A stretch of DNA of 64,000 nucleotides from NCBI GenBank assembly GCA_963795085.1, contig CAWCFX010000001.1, positions 768,001 through 832,000 on the forward strand, in the 5' to 3' direction. Position 1 is the stretch's first letter; each line of letters begins with the position of its first letter. Both the position numbers and the translations under genes were made by a program. Positions 1-6,994 of the stretch are shown piece by piece. The stretch is from an uncultured Gemmatimonadales bacterium. Its GTDB lineage: Bacteria > Gemmatimonadota > Gemmatimonadetes > Gemmatimonadales > GWC2-71-9. The notes under the pieces are model-generated. The model searched no databases and was not told the origin of the DNA. It was given only the letters and a program-made list of their open reading frames with translations.

Positions 1-909
1 GCCGGACCCGAACTTGACCAGCTGGGGTCGGGTCTGCCGGGCCACCCAGAGCAGGAATCCATCGTACCTCACGAAGACCTGGTCCCGGTCCTCGGGGACC
101 GGAATCCAGGGCGTCGCCGGCTCGTCGGGGCCGACCCGGGCCCACCGCCACTGGCCCCGGTGCCGGTCCCAGTCCCCCATGAACACGTCCATGAGCCGGG
201 CCTTGAGGTAGGCGGTGGTATCGATGTGCTCGGCGGGACTCTCCTCCAGGTGCTCGAGCAGCTTCTCCATGTCGATGACCTTGGTGGCGTTTTCGACGCC
301 GGGGGTGCGGGTCGCGCCTTCGTTCACGTGCTCCTCCAGCAGCCCGAGCATGCCGGCGAAGGTGCGGCGAAACTCACCCAGCCGGGGATCGTCCGGCATC
401 ACGAACAGCATGGGGGAGGCATGGACAACCCCCGCCGCCGTGAGCAGCCGGTCTGAGACCAGCGGGCCGGTCGGGTGGGCGGCGCTGATCTGGTCCTGTA
501 CCAGGTCGTCGGCAAAGGTGCCGCGGAGGTCGGGCGGCAGCACGGCGGAGGGATCCTTGTCCACCGAGCGGAAATTGAACTCCCGGCCGTCCGGTGCCCG
601 GAACCGGAGCGACTTGGTCTGTTGTCCGCCGCCCTGCTTGACCGGCGTGAGGCCGCCGGCAAAGGTGCCGAGGTCCAGGATGTCCACCTTGGTGGGGGTG
701 GTCCAGAGGTCCCGGTAGTCCGACCCGAAGAAGGTCCGCCAGATCCCTCCCGCTTCGTACTGGGGGCTGGGCGCGACCAGGGCCCAGGGGGTGGTATCGT
801 TCTGGGCCGCGGCGGGGGTGGCCGGGACCGGCAGCGTTCCCAGGCCGGCGAGCAGCAGACTGCCGGGGAACCGGCGCCAACCGGATGGACGGGCAAAGGC
901 GAGGGGCAT
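1..909 (-). CDS. Exported atypical kinase-like protein, 3' part outside window (resembles the region found N-terminal to BamA/TamA-type barrels)
   Basis: Not in the ORF track; translated by hand, open from ATG 909 to base 1. Signal-peptide-like start (..LLLAGLGTLPVPATPAAA-Q), YRDLWTTP, GGGQQTKSLRF, FRSVDKD, ARLMDVFMGDWDRHRGQWRW, VPEDRDQVF. Barrel is inferred, not visible. Confidence 0.7.
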   Translation of the reverse strand, partial: MPLAFARPSGWRRFPGSLLLAGLGTLPVPATPAAAQNDTTPWALVAPSPQYEAGGIWRTFFGSDYRDLWTTPTKVDILDLGTFAGGLTPVKQGGGQQTKSLRFRAPDGREFNFRSVDKDPSAVLPPDLRGTFADDLVQDQISAAHPTGPLVSDRLLTAAGVVHASPMLFVMPDDPRLGEFRRTFAGMLGLLEEHVNEGATRTPGVENATKVIDMEKLLEHLEESPAEHIDTTAYLKARLMDVFMGDWDRHRGQWRWARVGPDEPATPWIPVPEDRDQVFVRYDGFLLWVARQTRPQLVKFGSG

Positions 910-958
910 GGGATCGAGCCTCAGGGGTCGCAGTCGGTGACACGGTTGCAGTCTGGAA

Positions 959-1032
959 ATCATACTCCGGAGCGAGGCCGGGGCAAGAGACGGCGGTCAC
1001 AATTCGACGGCGTCCCCCTCCCGATGTAAGCT
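959..1032. promoter_or_regulatory. Candidate divergent sigma70-type promoters
   Basis: Minus: TTGCCC-16-TATGAT (986-959). Plus: TCGACG-17-TAAGCT (1004-1032). Pattern match only. Confidence 0.3.
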
Positions 1033-1066
1033 TCATCGGGCCAGGGGTGACGAACCGGGAGCGCAC

Positions 1067-2461
1067 ATGGGTCGAGGCTGGCTGGACCGTCTGCTCAGAG
1101 TCTTTACCGACGTTCGGGAGGGAGAAGGGGCGACCGCTCTGCTCCTCATGCTGAACGTGTTCCTGATCCTCACCGCGTACCTGATGCTCAAGGTAGTCCG
1201 GGAGCCGCTGATCCTGGCCGGCGGCGGCGCCGAGGTCAAGAGCTACGCCTCGGCGGGGCAGGCGATCCTGCTGCTCGTCCTGGTGCCGCTCTACGGCTGG
1301 GTGGCCAGCCGGTTTCCCCGCAAGAAGCTCATCAATATCGTCACCATCGGCTTTGCGCTCTGCCTCCCCCTGTTCTACCTGCTGGCCCGGCTCGACGTTC
1401 CCCTCGGCATTGTCTTCTTCCTGTGGATCGGGGTCTTCAACCTGATGATCGTGGCCCAGTTCTGGGCTTTCGCCAACGACATCTATACCACCGAAGAGGG
1501 CAAACGGCTTTTCCCGCTGGTGGCCTTCGGGGCCTCGGCGGGTGCGGTGGCCGGGAGTTTCATCGCAGGGCTGCTGATCGCGCCGGTGGGCGTGTACCAG
1601 CTCATGCTGGTGGCGGCGCTGGTCCTGCTGGCCAGCCTGGTGCTGACCAACATCGTGGACCGGCGGGAGCGGGCCCGGCGGGAGGGCCACCTCCCGCCGC
1701 CCGACACCACGGCCGAAATGCCGGCGGCCACCACCGCCGAGATGCGGGTGGCCACCACCGGCGAGATGCGGGCGGCGCCGGCGGGCACGCAGCCGGTGCA
1801 GCGGGAGGGCCCCTTCCAGCTGGTGCTCCGGAACCGGTACCTGCTGCTGATCGCGTTCATGATCCTGGTGCTCAACTGGGTGAACACCACCGGCGAATAC
1901 ATCGTCGGGCGGACGGTGAGCGAGGCCGCGGCCACCGCGGCGGCGCGGCCGGGCGCGCCCAGCGAGGAGGTGTTGATCGGGCAGTTCTACGCCGGATACA
2001 CCGGGGTGGTGAACCTGGCTGCGCTGCTGATCCAGCTGTTCCTGGTCTCCCGGATCGTCAAGTACGCCGGGGTGCACCGCGCGATTCTCATCCTGCCGTT
2101 CATCGCCCTGGGCGGGTATCTCCTGCTGGCGGTCTATCCCGTGCTGAGCGTGGTACGGTGGGCCAAGACGGCGGAGAACTCGACCGATTATTCGCTGCAG
2201 AACACCCTGCGCCACATGCTCTTCCTGCCCACCACTCGGGACCAGAAGTACAAGGCCAAGCAGGCGATCGACGGATTTTTCGTGCGGGCGGGGGACGTGC
2301 TGTCGGCCGTCCTGGTCTTCGGGGGGACGACCTGGCTGGCGCTCAGCTCCTCGGGCTTCGCGGCCTTCAACCTCGGCCTGGCGGTGGTGTGGCTGGTGCT
2401 GGCGGTGCTGGTGGGGCGGGAGTTCCGGCGGCGGACCGCGGAGCAGGTGGAAGGGCGATAA
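1067..2461 (+). CDS. Npt1/Npt2 (TLC, ATP:ADP antiporter family) nucleotide translocase
   Basis: About 12 hydrophobic segments; YLMLKVVREPL, QFWAFANDIYTTEEGKRLFP, ENSTDYSLQNT, KYKAKQAIDGFFVRAGD. Confidence 0.85.
   Translation: MGRGWLDRLLRVFTDVREGEGATALLLMLNVFLILTAYLMLKVVREPLILAGGGAEVKSYASAGQAILLLVLVPLYGWVASRFPRKKLINIVTIGFALCLPLFYLLARLDVPLGIVFFLWIGVFNLMIVAQFWAFANDIYTTEEGKRLFPLVAFGASAGAVAGSFIAGLLIAPVGVYQLMLVAALVLLASLVLTNIVDRRERARREGHLPPPDTTAEMPAATTAEMRVATTGEMRAAPAGTQPVQREGPFQLVLRNRYLLLIAFMILVLNWVNTTGEYIVGRTVSEAAATAAARPGAPSEEVLIGQFYAGYTGVVNLAALLIQLFLVSRIVKYAGVHRAILILPFIALGGYLLLAVYPVLSVVRWAKTAENSTDYSLQNTLRHMLFLPTTRDQKYKAKQAIDGFFVRAGDVLSAVLVFGGTTWLALSSSGFAAFNLGLAVVWLVLAVLVGREFRRRTAEQVEGR
1706..1777 (+). 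repeat. In-frame 24-bp tandem repeat x3 in translocase central loop
   Basis: Encodes TTAEMPAA-TTAEMRVA-TTGEMRAA. Confidence 0.85.
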
Positions 2462-2589: not shown

Positions 2590-4833
2590 TCAGGCTCCTT
2601 TGCTCGCCCGGCGCCGGATTTCTTCCAGGTTCAGCGAAATCGAATCGTTGGAGCGCATCAGGTCCGCGATGATCTCCTCCCGCTCCCGGCCCCCGCTTCG
2701 CCGGGGACGCCGGTCCTCCAGGAACGGCCAGAGCCGGACCCGGACCGGGTCGGGCAGCGCGTTCTCGAGATATTCGAGGGCGGTGCCCCGCAGGTGCTCG
2801 TCGTCGGTAAAGAGACCGCGGAACGCAATCCGGAGCGGTGCCTCAGGGAGCGCCAGGGAGAGCACCGTGAACACGTGCTCCATGCTGCGGCCGGCCCGTT
2901 CCCGCAGAAATTCATCGAGGAAGGGATCCTCGACCCCCTCGTCGGCTTCGCTCAGCAGCCGCTGGCTCTCCCAGATCTGCCGGTCCACCATCACCTCGCG
3001 AAGTACCGCATCGAAGACCCGCTGGCCGGGGATCTCGAGTTCAGGGTGATGCCGGTGCAGTTCGGCCAGCGCCCGCCCGGAGCGGTAGCGCACTTCAAAC
3101 CGGCGGTCCCCCAAACCCTCCAACAGGCCGTTCACCGTGCGTTGCGAGGGGGCCGCCGCCAGCAGCGGCGGAATTCGCCGCCGGATGGCGAACGGCTGGT
3201 CCGGGTCCAGCATCGCGTCGAGCAACTGCCCCACGATGGAGGGCGCGATGGCGCGGAGCGCCTCCGCCGCCGGGCGGGCCACCTCGTCCCAGGCGAGCAG
3301 CGGCACGACATGGGGGACCAGGGCAGGCGTCAGCGTCCCGCGGCCCAGCGCGGCGCGGACCCGCGGCCGGTCGCGGGAGCGCAGGTCCTGGATGGCCAGG
3401 AGCTCGGCGTCGCCTTCCAGGGGCGGGGCGGCAGAAGACGGCTCCGCGTCGATACTCTCCGCTCTGATACTCTCCGCCGATGGTGCCTCCTGGCTCACGC
3501 CCGCCCCGACCAGCTGCCCCATGTCGAAGGTGGTCATGGTTTCGAACCCGGTCGGATGTTCCATGGTCACCGAGGTTCCCTCGCTGTCGAGCGCGGCACC
3601 ATGGGCGATCAGCTTCTTCTCCAGCGCTTCCCGATACCCGCCCTGCAGGTTCCGCGCGACCAGCACCGCTGCCGCCGAGAGCGCCACCGCCAGGACGAGG
3701 AGCGACTGGAACGCGATGGCCGGCACCACCAGCAGGCTGGCCTGGACGATGCCGCCGCCGATCACGTCGCCCAGCCGGACCGAGCCGACGTCCACCAGGG
3801 TCTTGGTGGCCCGCTTTTCGTGACGGCGGATCGGGGTGAAGAGCAGCTCATACCCGGAGCGGAAAAGCGAGTTGTGGAAAACGGCTTCGGCGCCCCGGGC
3901 CAGCGCGATGCTTCCCAGGCCGGGGACCATGAGCGCCCCGATGCCGGCAAGGCCCACCGAACCGGGCAGCACCGAGACGGTACCGGCCAGGCCAAGGCGG
4001 TCAAGGACGGCACGGGTGAACCCGCTCTGCACCAGGAAGGTGAGGAGCGAGACGCCGGTGTAGAAGGCGGCGAAGAACCGGAGCAGCCGTTCGCCATCGC
4101 CCATGCGGAGGACCGCCTGGCCCTTGAAGACAAAGTCCACCAGCCCCTCCGCCACCGTGCACAATACCACCAGGATGACAAGGTGGCGCAGGTACGGCAC
4201 CGTGCCGAGGAGCCGGACGCCTTCCAGGGTGGAAAGTCGCTGGGGAGGGGCCGCGGAAGCGGGCCGGGCCGGGCGGGAGGCCAGTAGCACCCGCACCATG
4301 ACGGTGGCGAGCAGGTGAAACCCGGCCAGCACCAGGAGCATGGCGCTGACTCCCGCCATCGCCGCGGTCCGTTCGGCCAGGACGCCACCGATCACCCCGC
4401 CGATGGTGCCCGCCGCCCCGATCCGGGCGATCTGGCGGCGGGCGCTCCGGGGATCGAACCGCTCGTTGACCATGGACCAGAACCCGGATATCAGCAGTGC
4501 GCCCATCACGGTGAAGTGGAGGTACACCAGGACGGCGACGGCCCGGCCGGAGGGGCCCATGAGGCCCCACTCCAGCAGCAGCAGCACCGTGCTCGCGCCG
4601 AACAGGGAGGGCACGAATCGCCAGGGACCGTGCCGGCTGATATGCCGGGCCGCCCAGAGGACGGCGATGACGGAGAGAATGGAGGAGGTGATCACCATGG
4701 TGGGCAGCATGGTGAGGGGAAAACTGGACAGAAACAGCGCGTCCCGGGTCGCCTTGCCTCCGACCTGGAAGGCGATCATGGCCGCCGAGGCGGCGGCCGC
4801 GGCGACTACCGCGGTCCGGCGGGACTCGGCCAC
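2590..4833 (-). CDS. Npt/TLC-like MFS transporter fused to C-terminal HEAT-like helical repeats
   Basis: GKATRDALFLS, FWSMVNERFDPRSARR, ELLFTPIRRHEKRATKTLVDVG; C-terminal HEAT-like LGDRRFEVRYRSGRAL, HLRGTALEYLEN. Confidence 0.75.
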   Translation of the reverse strand: MAESRRTAVVAAAAASAAMIAFQVGGKATRDALFLSSFPLTMLPTMVITSSILSVIAVLWAARHISRHGPWRFVPSLFGASTVLLLLEWGLMGPSGRAVAVLVYLHFTVMGALLISGFWSMVNERFDPRSARRQIARIGAAGTIGGVIGGVLAERTAAMAGVSAMLLVLAGFHLLATVMVRVLLASRPARPASAAPPQRLSTLEGVRLLGTVPYLRHLVILVVLCTVAEGLVDFVFKGQAVLRMGDGERLLRFFAAFYTGVSLLTFLVQSGFTRAVLDRLGLAGTVSVLPGSVGLAGIGALMVPGLGSIALARGAEAVFHNSLFRSGYELLFTPIRRHEKRATKTLVDVGSVRLGDVIGGGIVQASLLVVPAIAFQSLLVLAVALSAAAVLVARNLQGGYREALEKKLIAHGAALDSEGTSVTMEHPTGFETMTTFDMGQLVGAGVSQEAPSAESIRAESIDAEPSSAAPPLEGDAELLAIQDLRSRDRPRVRAALGRGTLTPALVPHVVPLLAWDEVARPAAEALRAIAPSIVGQLLDAMLDPDQPFAIRRRIPPLLAAAPSQRTVNGLLEGLGDRRFEVRYRSGRALAELHRHHPELEIPGQRVFDAVLREVMVDRQIWESQRLLSEADEGVEDPFLDEFLRERAGRSMEHVFTVLSLALPEAPLRIAFRGLFTDDEHLRGTALEYLENALPDPVRVRLWPFLEDRRPRRSGGREREEIIADLMRSNDSISLNLEEIRRRASKGA

Positions 4834-4834
4834 G

Positions 4835-5449
4835 TCATCGGTCCCCGTCCTTCAGTTGGCGGCCGAGTTCAGCCGCCAGGAGCCGCAGCTCGTTGACCAT
4901 GCCGCGTCCCTTCCACTCGGGCCGGGACTCCAGGTTGTCCAGCAGCGAACGGTACCACCAGAGGATCTCTTCCGCGTTGGCCAGGCAGATGGACGACAGG
5001 TACTCCCGCCCCAGCCGCCGCACGTCGGCGATCAGCGAGCCGCAGTAGTGAATCTCGCTCGCGGTGCAGACTTCCAGCGCACGGCTGCCGGCCCGGGCCA
5101 GCTGCCCGAGGTACTCCAGCTTGTACACCGTCCAGGGACGGAGCTGGCCCCGGCCGTCGTGGCGCGGCTCGCAGGCGTCCGACAGCACGGTAATGACCAC
5201 CGATCCGAACTTGTCCGCCACCTTGTGCCGCACCAGGTGCTGGTCATCCGGCCGGGTTTCGGCCAGCACCGGGTGGAGGATCCCGGCGATGATGGTGTGC
5301 TCATCGCAGCCAAAGCGGGCCAGGATGAGCCCGGTGTGCGATGGGTGGGTCAGGTAGGAAAGCCCGGTGCCTTCGCGAGAACGGGGCACATAGTACTTGG
5401 CTGCGAACGCCAGGGCATGATTGATGGGGTCGCTGTAGCCGTGGGCCAT
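4835..5449 (-). CDS. HD_4 / Mesh1-SAH-like protein with degenerate catalytic motifs
   Basis: INHALAFAA..SYLTHP..AGILHPVLAE..KFG; start moved to ATG 5449 because the ORF extension is repeat-derived. Confidence 0.75.
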   Translation of the reverse strand: MAHGYSDPINHALAFAAKYYVPRSREGTGLSYLTHPSHTGLILARFGCDEHTIIAGILHPVLAETRPDDQHLVRHKVADKFGSVVITVLSDACEPRHDGRGQLRPWTVYKLEYLGQLARAGSRALEVCTASEIHYCGSLIADVRRLGREYLSSICLANAEEILWWYRSLLDNLESRPEWKGRGMVNELRLLAAELGRQLKDGDR

Positions 5450-5524
5450 GGGAGTGCAGAGTTCAGAGTTCAGAGTGCAGAGTTCAGGGTCCAGAGCACT
5501 CTGCACTCTGCACTCTGCACTCCC
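5450..5524. repeat. Inverted pair of 7-mer arrays (AGTKCAG)n / (CTGCACT)n
   Basis: Ends GGGAGTGCAGAG and CTCTGCACTCCC are a perfect 12-bp inverted repeat; fills the queE-HD gap. Confidence 0.9.
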
Positions 5525-5525
5525 T

Positions 5526-6170
5526 TCAGGGGATGCCGAGAAGCTTATGCGTTTGGAGGCTCAAGCGCCATTCGGGGTGGGCCAGGCAATACTCGACGGC
5601 CAGCCGGGTGGTGGCATCCTTGTCGGGACCGTCCATGGGCTGAAGAAAGAAATGCTGGAAGGCGAGGCGCCGGTACCGTTCCGGTTCCGCGCCCGGCTGG
5701 GGGAAAACCAGCTTCAGCTCGTGGCCCTCCGTCAGGACGAGTGGGGCGCCGGCTTTGGGGCTGACGCAGATCCAGTCCAGCCCCGGGGGCGCTGGCTGGG
5801 TTCCGTTGGTCTCCACCGCCACCTCCAACCCGGTGGCGTGAAAGGCGTCGATCAGGGCGCTATTGAGCTGGAGCAGGGGTTCGCCCCCGGTGCAGACGAT
5901 GTAGGGACGGCCCCCGGATGACCTGGCGCCGTTTGTCCAGGTGTCGATCGCGGCCCCGGCGAGGGCCCCGGCGGTGGCGAACTTGCCGCCTCCCGGTCCC
6001 TCGGTGCCGACGAAATCGGTGTCGCAGAACTGGCAGACCGCCTGGTGCCGGTCCTCCTCCCGGCCAGTCCAGAGATTACACCCGGCGAAGCGGCAGAACA
6101 CAGCCGCCCGTCCCGCCTGGGCGCCCTCGCCCTGGAGGGTGTAGAAGAGTTCCTTGACGGCGTAAGACAC
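5526..6170 (-). CDS. queE: 7-carboxy-7-deazaguanine synthase, Cx14CxxC radical SAM type
   Basis: ELFYTLQGEG, CNLWTGREEDRHQAVCQFCDT, TGGEPLLQ, VETNGT, SLQTHK; GTG start at 6170. Confidence 0.95.
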   Translation of the reverse strand: MSYAVKELFYTLQGEGAQAGRAAVFCRFAGCNLWTGREEDRHQAVCQFCDTDFVGTEGPGGGKFATAGALAGAAIDTWTNGARSSGGRPYIVCTGGEPLLQLNSALIDAFHATGLEVAVETNGTQPAPPGLDWICVSPKAGAPLVLTEGHELKLVFPQPGAEPERYRRLAFQHFFLQPMDGPDKDATTRLAVEYCLAHPEWRLSLQTHKLLGIP

Positions 6171-6181
6171 AGGGGGAAGAT

Positions 6182-6306
6182 AATTGAGGGAATTGGGAAA
6201 TTGAGGGAATGTTGGAATTGAATCAAATTCCCTCAATTCCCTCAATTCCCTCAATTCCCTCAATTCCCTCAATTCCCTCAATTCCCTCAATTCCCTCAAT
6301 TCCCTC
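6182..6306. repeat. 9-mer array (AATTCCCTC)x9 with short degenerate inverted arm
   Basis: Nine copies at 6226-6306; AATTGAGGG-type copies at 6182-6220; queC stop lies in the array. Confidence 0.95.
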
Positions 6307-6994
6307 CCCCATATTTCCCCGGGTCGGTCATCCCCGCCTCCTGAAATCCCTGGAGCCGCAGCAGGCAGGCGTCGCAGCGGCCGCAGGCGAGGCCGTCCGG
6401 CGCGGCCGTGTAGCAACTGATCGTCATTCCATAATCCACGCCCAGTGCGCCGCCGCGCTGGATGATCTGTGCCTTGCTGAGATTGATGAGCGGGGTGTGG
6501 ATACTGAAGCGGCGGCCTTCAACGCCTGCCCGGGTGGCCAGGTTTGCCACCTGCTCGAAGGCGGCAATGAACTCGGGCCGGCAGTCTGGGTAGCCGCTGT
6601 AGTCCACCGCGTTCACCCCGATGAAAATGTCCTGCGCCCCGAGCACTTCGGCCCAGCCCAGGGCATAGGAGAGAAAAATGGTATTGCGGGCCGGGACGTA
6701 GGTCACCGGGATTTCGCCGGCCGTCTCCAGGGGAGACCGATCCAGCGGAACCTCCAGGTCCGAGGTGAGCGCCGACCCCCCCCAGGCACGAAGGTCGATC
6801 TGCGCCACGATGTGGCGAGCCACCCGCTGCGACTCGGCTACCCGTCGGGCGGCCGCCACCTCGGCCGCGTGCCGCTGGCCGTAGTCGAAACTCAGGGCGT
6901 AGGTCTCGAATCCATCGGTGCGGGCGATCGCCAGGACCGTCGCCGAATCGAGCCCGCCGCTCAGGAGCACCACCGCCTTCTGGGGAGGAACCAT
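6296..6994 (-). CDS. queC: 7-cyano-7-deazaguanine synthase
   Basis: SGGLDS, YGQRH, TYVPARN, SGYPDCR, SCY..CGRCDAC. Confidence 0.97.

Follow-up and report, generated by a model that had tools for sequence, protein, structure and literature searches.

The 64,000-nucleotide stretch of DNA analysed here (the window; G000:C1:768001-832000, from an uncultured Gemmatimonadales bacterium) contains at its left edge the 5' third of a gene, called kinase-barrel below, whose product is predicted from its sequence and structural models to be a Sec-exported outer-membrane protein, in which an atypical-kinase domain is joined to an Omp85 barrel that has 16 strands and lacks POTRA domains. The architecture is new and is built from known kinds of domain, an Omp85 barrel and a protein-kinase-like fold. 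In the window the gene is close to genes for two putative nucleotide carriers of the NTT/TLC type, TLC1 and TLC2HEAT. This linkage is real but clade-limited: it is found in one Gemmatimonadales clade, which includes the window copy, and often takes the form of an operon. The best single reading, possible although it falls somewhat short of an even chance, is that the carriers supply ATP to an envelope kinase.

The kinase-barrel gene and its product

The minus-strand open reading frame at 1..963 leaves the window at its left edge, and in the flanking DNA the gene extends to G000:C1:766300. Its product has 869 amino acids from the ATG at 909, or 887 from the ATG at 963; residue numbers refer to the 887-residue frame (P0001) unless P0002 is named. 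P0002 (869 amino acids) is a database protein identical to the window product and begins at the second ATG (window 909). The window part of the gene and its upstream region show the following features:

1..909, minus strand: 5' part of the kinase-barrel gene (residues 19-321 of the 887-residue frame), open at the left window edge
805..909, minus strand: signal-peptide-like N-terminus with a basic start, an LLLAGLGTL core and an AAA-Q site, without a lipobox Cys
910..1066, no strand: divergent intergenic region between kinase-barrel and TLC1, 157 bp, with a promoter-like hexamer pair on each strand
610..633, minus strand: Gly-rich loop GGGQQTKS, residues 111-118, between two N-lobe beta-strands (DSSP of the model)
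556..573, minus strand: FRSVDK, residues 131-136, closing the third strand; R132 and K136 are invariant
148..177, minus strand: GDWDRHRGQW, residues 263-272, candidate catalytic loop D-x-H-x-x-Q, after a long helix
73..93, minus strand: EDRDQVF, residues 291-297, preceded by two short strands; D292 and D294 are invariant

The gap between kinase-barrel and TLC1 measures 157 bp with the ATG at 909 and 103 bp with the ATG at 963. It contains promoter-like hexamer pairs at 937-966 (plus strand) and 986-959 (minus strand), two sites against 0.0 expected in shuffles, both of them consensus matches only. Since transcription from the minus-strand pair would begin downstream of the ATG at 963, the start at 909 is weakly favoured. 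With this start, which is also that of P0002, the 157-bp divergent gap to a translocase gene described in a first-pass annotation of this DNA holds. The N-terminus, MPLAFARPSGWRRFPGSLLLAGLGTLPVPATPAAAQ, reads as a sequence resembling a Sec signal peptide, and the signal-peptide-like start pointed out in the same annotation recurs in most of 118 aligned relatives (34-79% identity): a hydrophobic core preceded by K/R is found in 107 of them by a crude hydropathy test, and a lipobox-like N-terminus in three. In the full-length model, residues 1-37 of P0002 show a predicted local distance difference test score (pLDDT) below 50. The annotation had described an exported kinase-like protein and proposed recovery of the full gene as a check; with the gene recovered (869/887 amino acids), the export stands and the soluble exported kinase does not, the product being an Omp85 outer-membrane fusion whose C-terminal barrel is encoded outside the window. 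From the N-terminus the protein shows a signal peptide, a domain of about 350 residues without a Pfam family, a beta-rich linker and the 16-strand Omp85 barrel, with the kinase domain at about residues 90-405 and the linker at about 410-520. The AlphaFold2 model of all 869 residues has a pLDDT of 93.4 and a predicted template modelling score (pTM) of 0.89, and its domains are packed confidently.

The AlphaFold2 model of residues 40-580 (pLDDT 94.5, pTM 0.93) firmly places the N-terminal domain (N-domain) among atypical-kinase folds of the CotH/PI4KII/CtkA-like kind. Foldseek against PDB gives 25 matches at E<=1e-3, all of them kinases: CtkA of H. pylori is first at 1.5e-5, and PI4KIIalpha, B. 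cereus CotH, HipA and the Golgi casein kinase Fam20C are among the others. VIA-align on the Foldseek candidates covers model residues of about 53-366 and gives Z 15.6 for PI4KIIbeta (257 residues aligned, root-mean-square deviation 4.3), 15.0 for CotH and 14.7 for CtkA. A Foldseek-independent VIA search of 48,161 representative chains shows PI4KIIalpha at Z 15.0, CotH at 14.7 and CtkA at 13.7, with kinases in all of the first 36 rows; in the structure comparisons HipA reaches Z 11.6-11.8 and Fam20C Z 10.6. The kinase-like nature proposed in the first-pass annotation is thus borne out at the level of the fold by the model, Foldseek and the two VIA comparisons. By sequence, membership of the CotH, PI3/PI4-kinase and HipA families fails Pfam gathering scores. 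Single-sequence searches of the N-domain against PDB sequences return nothing meaningful, and Pfam and NCBIfam name no family for it. The family profile touches CtkA residues 147-177, the catalytic region, at a non-significant E of 1.4, and ESM Atlas gives sub-threshold leads only (score 0.80) to CotH- and HipA-bearing clusters, one lead having 30% CotH members.

The four motifs that the annotation had listed in kinase order are present and belong to the invariant or near-invariant core of the family. In the alignment of the 118 relatives the G, Q and T positions of GGGQQTKS are at least 90% conserved; in the catalytic-type loop R267 is invariant and D264, D266, H268, Q271 and W272 are at least 90% conserved. 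The residues invariant in 118/118 are R132, K136, R256, R267, D292, D294, G302, R390, R455, F577 and R798. Arg or Lys make up six of the ten invariant N-domain residues, a composition that suggests a strongly anionic ligand. Along the model a hairpin with the G-loop comes first, then K136 after the next strand, D-R-H-x-x-Q after a long helix, and D292/D294 after two short strands. This succession would correspond to the kinase G-loop, strand-3 lysine, catalytic loop and DFG aspartate, a mapping inferred from order along the model rather than from residue-level superposition. K136 is accordingly listed as a candidate nucleotide-binding lysine, and EDRDQVF as a candidate metal-binding equivalent of the DFG motif. 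PI3/4-kinases and HipA show an Asn at the last position of the catalytic D-x-H-x-x-N, followed by the metal-binding Asp after two strands; given the Gln at this position, the chemistry of the N-domain may differ.

Bacillus CotH (PDB 5jd9/5jda) has the fold in common with the N-domain, with 252-253 residues aligned, a root-mean-square deviation of 4.1-4.2 and Z 14.7-15.0, and for both proteins a place of action beyond the cytoplasm proper is known or predicted; unlike kinase-barrel, CotH has no Omp85 barrel. CotH is described as a Ser/Thr protein kinase of spore-coat proteins in the accessible part of PMC7821199. PI4KIIalpha/beta (PDB 4pla, 9hhm) are the best structural match to the N-domain (Z 15.0-15.6), share the D-R-H motif of the catalytic loop and may be likened to it as membrane-surface enzymes. 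However, they are eukaryotic lipid kinases with 8-10% identity to kinase-barrel, which has no PF00454 match, carries Gln for Asn and shows nothing that points to an inositol-lipid substrate. CtkA, HipA and HipT are bacterial atypical Ser/Thr kinases, of which CtkA, the top Foldseek match, gives Z 13.7-14.7; they are cytoplasmic toxins or secreted effectors without a barrel, and kinase-barrel has no HipA_C Pfam match.

In the C-terminal part, Pfam Omp85 (PF01103) matches residues 592-851 at 46.0 bits against a cut-off of 24, and the first 590 residues have no Pfam match. The model shows 16 strands between residues 530 and 865 of P0002, and the top Foldseek matches of the barrel are F. nucleatum BamA (the best, E 6e-11), Sam50 and TamA. 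The (V/I)RG(F/Y)-type motif of the conserved loop 6 of Omp85 proteins reads TLRGW at residues 790-794 of P0001; in P0002 numbering its R774 and G775 show conservation of at least 90%. In the models the roughly 110 residues preceding the barrel form an all-beta-strand linker and the remainder has the kinase fold; no POTRA domain is found between kinase domain and barrel, either by Pfam at E<=1 or in the models. NCBIfam shows only sub-threshold Omp85 and BamA matches, with TIGR03303 BamA at 25.2 bits against 297. Membership of BamA/TamA, the database name carried by close homologues, fails, there being no POTRA and a TIGR03303 score below cut-off, and the passenger-POTRA-barrel order of the type Vd autotransporter PlpD is absent, with no POTRA detected.

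The Omp85 survey of Heinz and Lithgow 2014 (PMC4104836) distinguishes, in its main text, subfamilies that are POTRA-bearing, patatin-like, of WD40, metalloprotease or lipoprotein type, or N-terminus-less. Nowhere does that main text use the word 'kinase', and a kinase-fold N-domain is not among its subfamilies, although supplementary tables S1-S3 could list the cluster unnamed. Patatin-like PlpD, WD40-Omp85 and metalloprotease-Omp85 likewise combine a 16-strand barrel with a non-POTRA or enzymatic N-terminal region. No description of an Omp85-kinase fusion was found in literature searches, and kinase-barrel adds a new domain architecture to the Omp85 superfamily.

The patatin-Omp85 PlpD, for which self-export is proposed, has an enzyme domain N-terminal to an Omp85 barrel (PMC11116518). 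The matching architecture of kinase-barrel allows a type V-like reading in which the barrel would pass the kinase domain to the cell surface, or release it, and the kinase would act outside the cell. This is very unlikely: no POTRA domain separates enzyme domain and barrel, the full-length model packs the domains confidently (pTM 0.89), and it is not easy to see why an extracellular enzyme would share an operon with nucleotide carriers of the inner membrane.

Putative nucleotide carriers and their linkage to kinase-barrel

The two carrier genes of the window are the following:

1067..2461, plus strand: TLC1, 464 amino acids, distant member of the NTT/TLC nucleotide-carrier family (Pfam TLC 48.3 bits against 21)
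2590..4833, minus strand: TLC2HEAT, 747 amino acids, NTT/TLC-like membrane domain and C-terminal HEAT-like helical repeats (Pfam TLC 34.2 bits against 21)

The Pfam score of TLC1 confirms the Npt/TLC translocase named in the first-pass annotation, and TLC2HEAT is a second TLC-like gene, outside the stretch which that annotation covered. TLC1 also matches MFS_1 at 45.1 bits. At E<=1 its PDB sequence matches are confined to two solved ADP/ATP carriers, 9j3n (E 2.7e-4) and 9j3j (E 3.1e-4), and it has the stretches FW.FAN.I and K.K.K.AID in common with them. The membrane domain of TLC2HEAT matches, at E<=1, only the ADP/ATP carriers 9j3j (E 1.5e-4) and 9j3n, the weaker match having E 0.021. HEAT_2 is weak in the window protein (E 0.095) and reaches E 8.5e-6 in the orthologue of locus L010 (26.4 bits against 27.7), and an alphaRep repeat protein matches TLC2HEAT residues 478-594 at E 0.05. 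Since the sole PDB matches to their membrane domains are solved ADP/ATP carriers, TLC1 and TLC2HEAT are predicted to be divergent NTT-type carriers, the second with NTT-HEAT architecture. In the accessible text of Major, Embley and Williams 2017 (PMC5381601), the NTT-HEAT architecture is monophyletic, widespread in free-living bacteria and without an assigned function, and all characterised NTTs are importers. TLC2HEAT appears to have the layout of NTT domain and C-terminal HEAT repeats seen in this clade of the NTT/TLC carriers (TC 2.A.12; PF03219); however, the window carriers are very divergent from characterised NTTs, and an operon with an outer-membrane kinase is not mentioned in that text.

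The linkage was scored in 151 sampled genomes of the phylum, taking as a TLC1 orthologue a protein that is at least 50% identical to TLC1 along most of the sequence. Of these genomes, 48 contain the kinase-barrel N-domain and 71 a TLC1-like protein. Twenty genomes, window genome excluded, contain a TLC1 orthologue: 12 show kinase-barrel on the same contig within 5 kb (11/19 without the unpublished genome G057, which contributed coordinates only), five show it on another contig and three have no match. The linkage with TLC genes in other genomes that the first-pass annotation asked for stands in one clade, often as an operon in which stop and start codons overlap and a gene for an exported metallophosphoesterase is frequently included, and not across the family, where it is rare (counts below).

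Twenty related loci were compared with the window proteins by tblastn. The order TLC1, kinase-barrel, TLC2HEAT on one strand is shown by eight loci; one locus is cut after TLC1 and kinase-barrel, two have other orders, four show a convergent TLC1/TLC2HEAT pair without kinase-barrel, three contain TLC1 alone, and one contains kinase-barrel alone, in three frames. In L013, TLC1 and kinase-barrel overlap by 4 nucleotides and TLC2HEAT follows 4 nucleotides further. L010 shows the order Ser/Thr kinase, TLC1, metallophosphoesterase, kinase-barrel and TLC2HEAT, with junctions of 28, -4, 6 and 28 nucleotides. The window arrangement is a third variant, with kinase-barrel divergent from TLC1 and TLC2HEAT convergent with TLC1. 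At least five gene orders retain the adjacency of kinase-barrel and TLC genes.

In a FastTree tree built from 91 kinase-barrels of near-full length, a single clade of 20 (support 94) takes in 16 of the 18 TLC-linked copies, and the window copy is in the enclosing clade of 36 rows (support 95). The TLC-link label needs at least four changes on the tree, and 0/500 shuffles are as clustered. A metagenome-assembled genome (MAG) of Acidobacteriota contains a Gemmatimonadales-type kinase-barrel with TLC1 directly downstream, an arrangement that would fit joint transfer of the two genes.

A Hanks-type Ser/Thr kinase gene is located 2 kb to the left of the window (L004:6394-8289) and upstream of TLC1 in most related loci, in many of them immediately so. 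Two separate parts of the window-genome copy match kinase domains, so it may hold tandem kinase-like domains. Hanks-type kinases are numerous in the Gemmatimonadota genomes sampled, and those upstream of TLC1 were matched by type. In the 20 related loci tblastn finds no match to the HD_4 or QueE-like gene beside TLC2HEAT, nor to the GGDEF or ABATE gene that follows kinase-barrel; none of the four belongs to the conserved unit. The HD_4 gene (RelA/SpoT-type HD, 4835-5506) ends 1 nucleotide before the TLC2HEAT start on the same strand, a pairing not seen in the 20 loci. The kinase-barrel at L020:7903-10344 (genome G023) is read in three frames, being either a frameshifted gene or the product of assembly errors; G023 is the genome whose TLC1 is closest to that of the window (64% identity).

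Family distribution and phosphate-related neighbours

Close homologues of kinase-barrel are found in Gemmatimonadota MAGs under the database name 'BamA/TamA family outer membrane protein'. The family shows at least 3,289 matches among 8,000 candidates scored in a 90%-identity database and 3,102 representatives at 50% identity, and at least 601 loci of species-representative genomes match the peptide pattern [GN]D[WR]DRHxxQW. From the species-representative collection 79 family loci were kept, many of them on short contigs; they belong to Gemmatimonadota, Ignavibacteriota, Chlorobiota, Bacteroidota, Calditrichota and one Acidobacteriota MAG. A search for shorter relatives with a stand-alone kinase domain gives 542 matches, and those listed are mostly contig-end fragments labelled 'partial'. 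The window genome contains two kinase-barrel paralogues, with 50% and 42% identity. Two kinase-barrel genes per contig, some in tandem, are also seen in L055, L073, L094, L049 and L052 and in G131:C5 and G084:C32.

Neighbours were counted over the 79 loci by clustering of open reading frames, Pfam scans and then iterative searches:

SdiA-regulated/phytase-like neighbour: 26/79 loci
metallophosphoesterase-like neighbour: 24/79 loci
DUF4956 neighbour: 21/79 loci
polyphosphate kinase PPK1 neighbour: 19/79 loci
HD-PycTM neighbour: 13/79 loci

At least one of metallophosphoesterase, phytase-like, DUF4956 and PPK1 is present in 53/79 loci, and His_Phos_1 and PAP2 are also among the family-wide neighbours. 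Triple fusions of 1257-1335 amino acids, with an N-terminal metallophosphoesterase, the kinase-fold domain and the Omp85 barrel, are found in Rufibacter (L100:6717-10487), in Pontibacter (L101:6717-10544) and in protein P0237. Since phosphoesterase and kinase-barrel are fused in these three and are separate adjacent genes elsewhere, the two are connected by a gene-fusion link. One paralogue of the window genome (50% identity) stands in a same-strand row on contig 4 (L005:5737-11626), which runs in the order DUF4956, phytase-like/SdiA-regulated, metallophosphoesterase and kinase-barrel, the paralogue coming last and having the metallophosphoesterase immediately upstream; the third paralogue (L006:8571-11741, 1056 amino acids) shows a weak, sub-threshold CHAD match (E 0.005). 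DUF4956 is linked to VTC-domain genes, a link not borne out in the kinase-barrel neighbours scanned, among which VTC has no match; literature searches for CotH with DUF4956 or VTC found nothing relevant. HD-PycTM, an HD phosphohydrolase with a Pycsar-effector membrane domain, recurs beside kinase-barrel in L043, L065, L096, L100 and others, often with nucleotide-cyclase-type genes (Guanylate_cyc, DUF2652), a combination that suggests a cyclic-nucleotide signalling layer.

The TLC-linked loci show a different set of neighbours from the other loci:

PPK1: 0/20 TLC-linked loci, 19/75 other loci
DUF4956: 0/20 TLC-linked loci, 22/75 other loci
phytase-like: 0/20 TLC-linked loci, 27/75 other loci
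HD-PycTM: 0/20 TLC-linked loci, 13/75 other loci
metallophosphoesterase: adjacent in 9/20 TLC-linked loci, 23/75 other loci

The TLC context excludes the PPK1, DUF4956, phytase-like and HD-PycTM context; this is a pattern and not a statistic, coming mostly from one clade and including 12 loci picked as linked. It agrees with a polyphosphate-centred explanation, in which the kinase fold would handle polyphosphate as donor or substrate, or the barrel would be its conduit, and the TLC carriers, as a replacement particular to their clade, would transport a related phosphate compound without feeding ATP to the kinase. The frequency of PPK1 and DUF4956 in the family, the Arg/Lys-rich invariant residues and the weak CHAD match of the window-genome paralogue, below threshold as it is, point the same way. 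However, the mutual exclusivity stems largely from one clade; PPK1 is a cytoplasmic enzyme, there is no established exporter of polyphosphate, and DUF4956 is uncharacterised. No kinase of CotH/PI4KII/CtkA-like fold is known to use polyphosphate. On balance this explanation has a low probability.

The same neighbours may be read as machinery for uptake: the outer-membrane protein and the exported phosphoesterase would capture or process external nucleotides or other organic phosphate, the carriers would import nucleotides, as is classical for NTTs, and the kinase fold would be a periplasmic nucleotide-binding or re-phosphorylating module. The phytase-like, Metallophos-like, His_Phos_1 and PAP2 neighbours are of the phosphate-acquisition type, the importer activity of the characterised NTTs (accessible text of PMC5381601) agrees with this direction, and the six Arg/Lys among ten invariant N-domain residues fit a polyanionic ligand. 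Nevertheless, the conserved Asp/His/Asp residues of catalytic type favour chemistry over mere binding, a nucleotide-stripping phosphoesterase would oppose nucleotide import, and nothing shows a POTRA-less Omp85 barrel acting as a solute pore. Uptake is an unlikely explanation, if one still to be reckoned with.

Proposed role in the envelope and other window features

It is the general view that the periplasm lacks ATP and that envelope processes draw their power indirectly. In solved Omp85 proteins the N-terminus of the barrel is in the periplasm. Since Omp85 barrel N-termini are periplasmic and, in some species, the far N-terminus carries a fused exported phosphoesterase, a periplasmic kinase domain would be the simplest topology, with the barrel anchoring the putative kinase domain to the outer membrane on its periplasmic side. 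NTT carriers exchange ATP for ADP plus phosphate. The gradients of a free-living cell that respires would favour ATP efflux and ADP influx, and the NTT-type carriers could run outward down the cell's own gradient, ATP going out and ADP, with phosphate, coming back. The exported ATP would be the phosphoryl donor for the putative kinase in a compartment otherwise without ATP, and kinase and exported metallophosphoesterase might form a phosphorylation/dephosphorylation pair acting on an envelope substrate that is probably strongly anionic. In sister lineages kinase-barrel is encoded with PPK1 and DUF4956 instead, a context that suggests either an alternative, polyphosphate-based donor supply or a polyphosphate-like anion as ligand. 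Secretory-pathway kinases of the Fam20C type work in an endoplasmic reticulum/Golgi compartment supplied with ATP by an import carrier; they combine a related kinase fold with a carrier-fed compartment, but carrier family, compartment and organism all differ, and the likeness is a functional analogy only.

Several observations weigh against the supply of ATP to an envelope kinase. The N-domain carries a near-invariant Gln (Q271) where PI3/4-kinases and HipA have Asn; the window kinase-barrel has no Pfam kinase match at E<=1 (CotH PF08757, PF00454, HipA_C PF07804), and just two of 30 relatives touch CotH PF08757, at E 0.025 and 0.16, collinear and below the 23.8-bit cut-off. TIGR00769 (NTP/NDP exchange transporter) scores 41.7 bits for TLC1 and 30.4 for TLC2HEAT against a cut-off of 387.2. 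A TLC-like gene lies within 8 kb in just 7/79 family loci, in more than one order, 22 of the 48 kinase-barrel genomes have no TLC-like match with TLC1 as query, 45 genomes contain the TLC-like gene only, and neither paralogue of the window genome is TLC-linked. The reading is weakened by these counts, as well as by the polyphosphate and phosphatase genes found beside the rest of the family. The cross-genome co-occurrence that the first-pass annotation had proposed scoring shows no genome-level enrichment, both genes being present in 26/151 genomes against 22.6 expected. Because 16/18 linked copies fall in one clade, the independent linkage events are few.

The lack of enrichment and the concentration of linked copies in one clade are also what would be seen if there were no direct coupling: the NTT pair would be an independent transport unit, possibly regulated by the Ser/Thr kinase, kinase-barrel would be a protein of outer-membrane biogenesis or regulation, possibly a pseudokinase, and the adjacency would be synteny inherited within a single bacterial family. 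The four loci with the TLC1/TLC2HEAT pair but no kinase-barrel and the three with TLC1 alone agree with this. However, overlapping or near-abutting genes, insertion between the carrier genes and at least five adjacent orders are unexpected from drift alone, and the catalytic-type residues are invariant in 118/118 sequences, which makes the absence of coupling improbable.

Supply of ATP by the carriers is the preferred reading. Its fuller form, in which NTT carriers export ATP and retrieve ADP for an Omp85-built kinase, periplasmic phosphorylation is made reversible by the phosphoesterase, and the system is polyphosphate-coupled in sister lineages, is rather doubtful as a whole. If true, a function would for the first time be assigned to the orphan carriers, NTT and NTT-HEAT, that free-living bacteria possess, and the rule of no ATP-dependent kinases in the periplasm would be overturned; no description of a periplasmic ATP-fed kinase was found in literature searches. 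The operon with two ATP/ADP-carrier homologues is a concrete case for ATP- or phosphoanhydride-dependent chemistry at the outer membrane, and it sets the NTT and NTT-HEAT carriers of free-living bacteria, catalogued in 2017 without a settled role, in a functional context.

Tandem repeats are found to the right of the carrier genes. A perfect array of nine copies of a 9-bp unit (AATTCCCTC) is located at window 6226-6306, in the over-extended 5' end of the QueE-like radical-SAM open reading frame (5526-6416), and is probably intergenic. Two adjacent 7-bp arrays, GAGTTCA x 6.4 and GCACTCT x 3.9, are located at window 5452-5522 and extend over the 5' end of HD_4 (4835-5506) and the short intergenic stretch between it and the QueE-like gene.

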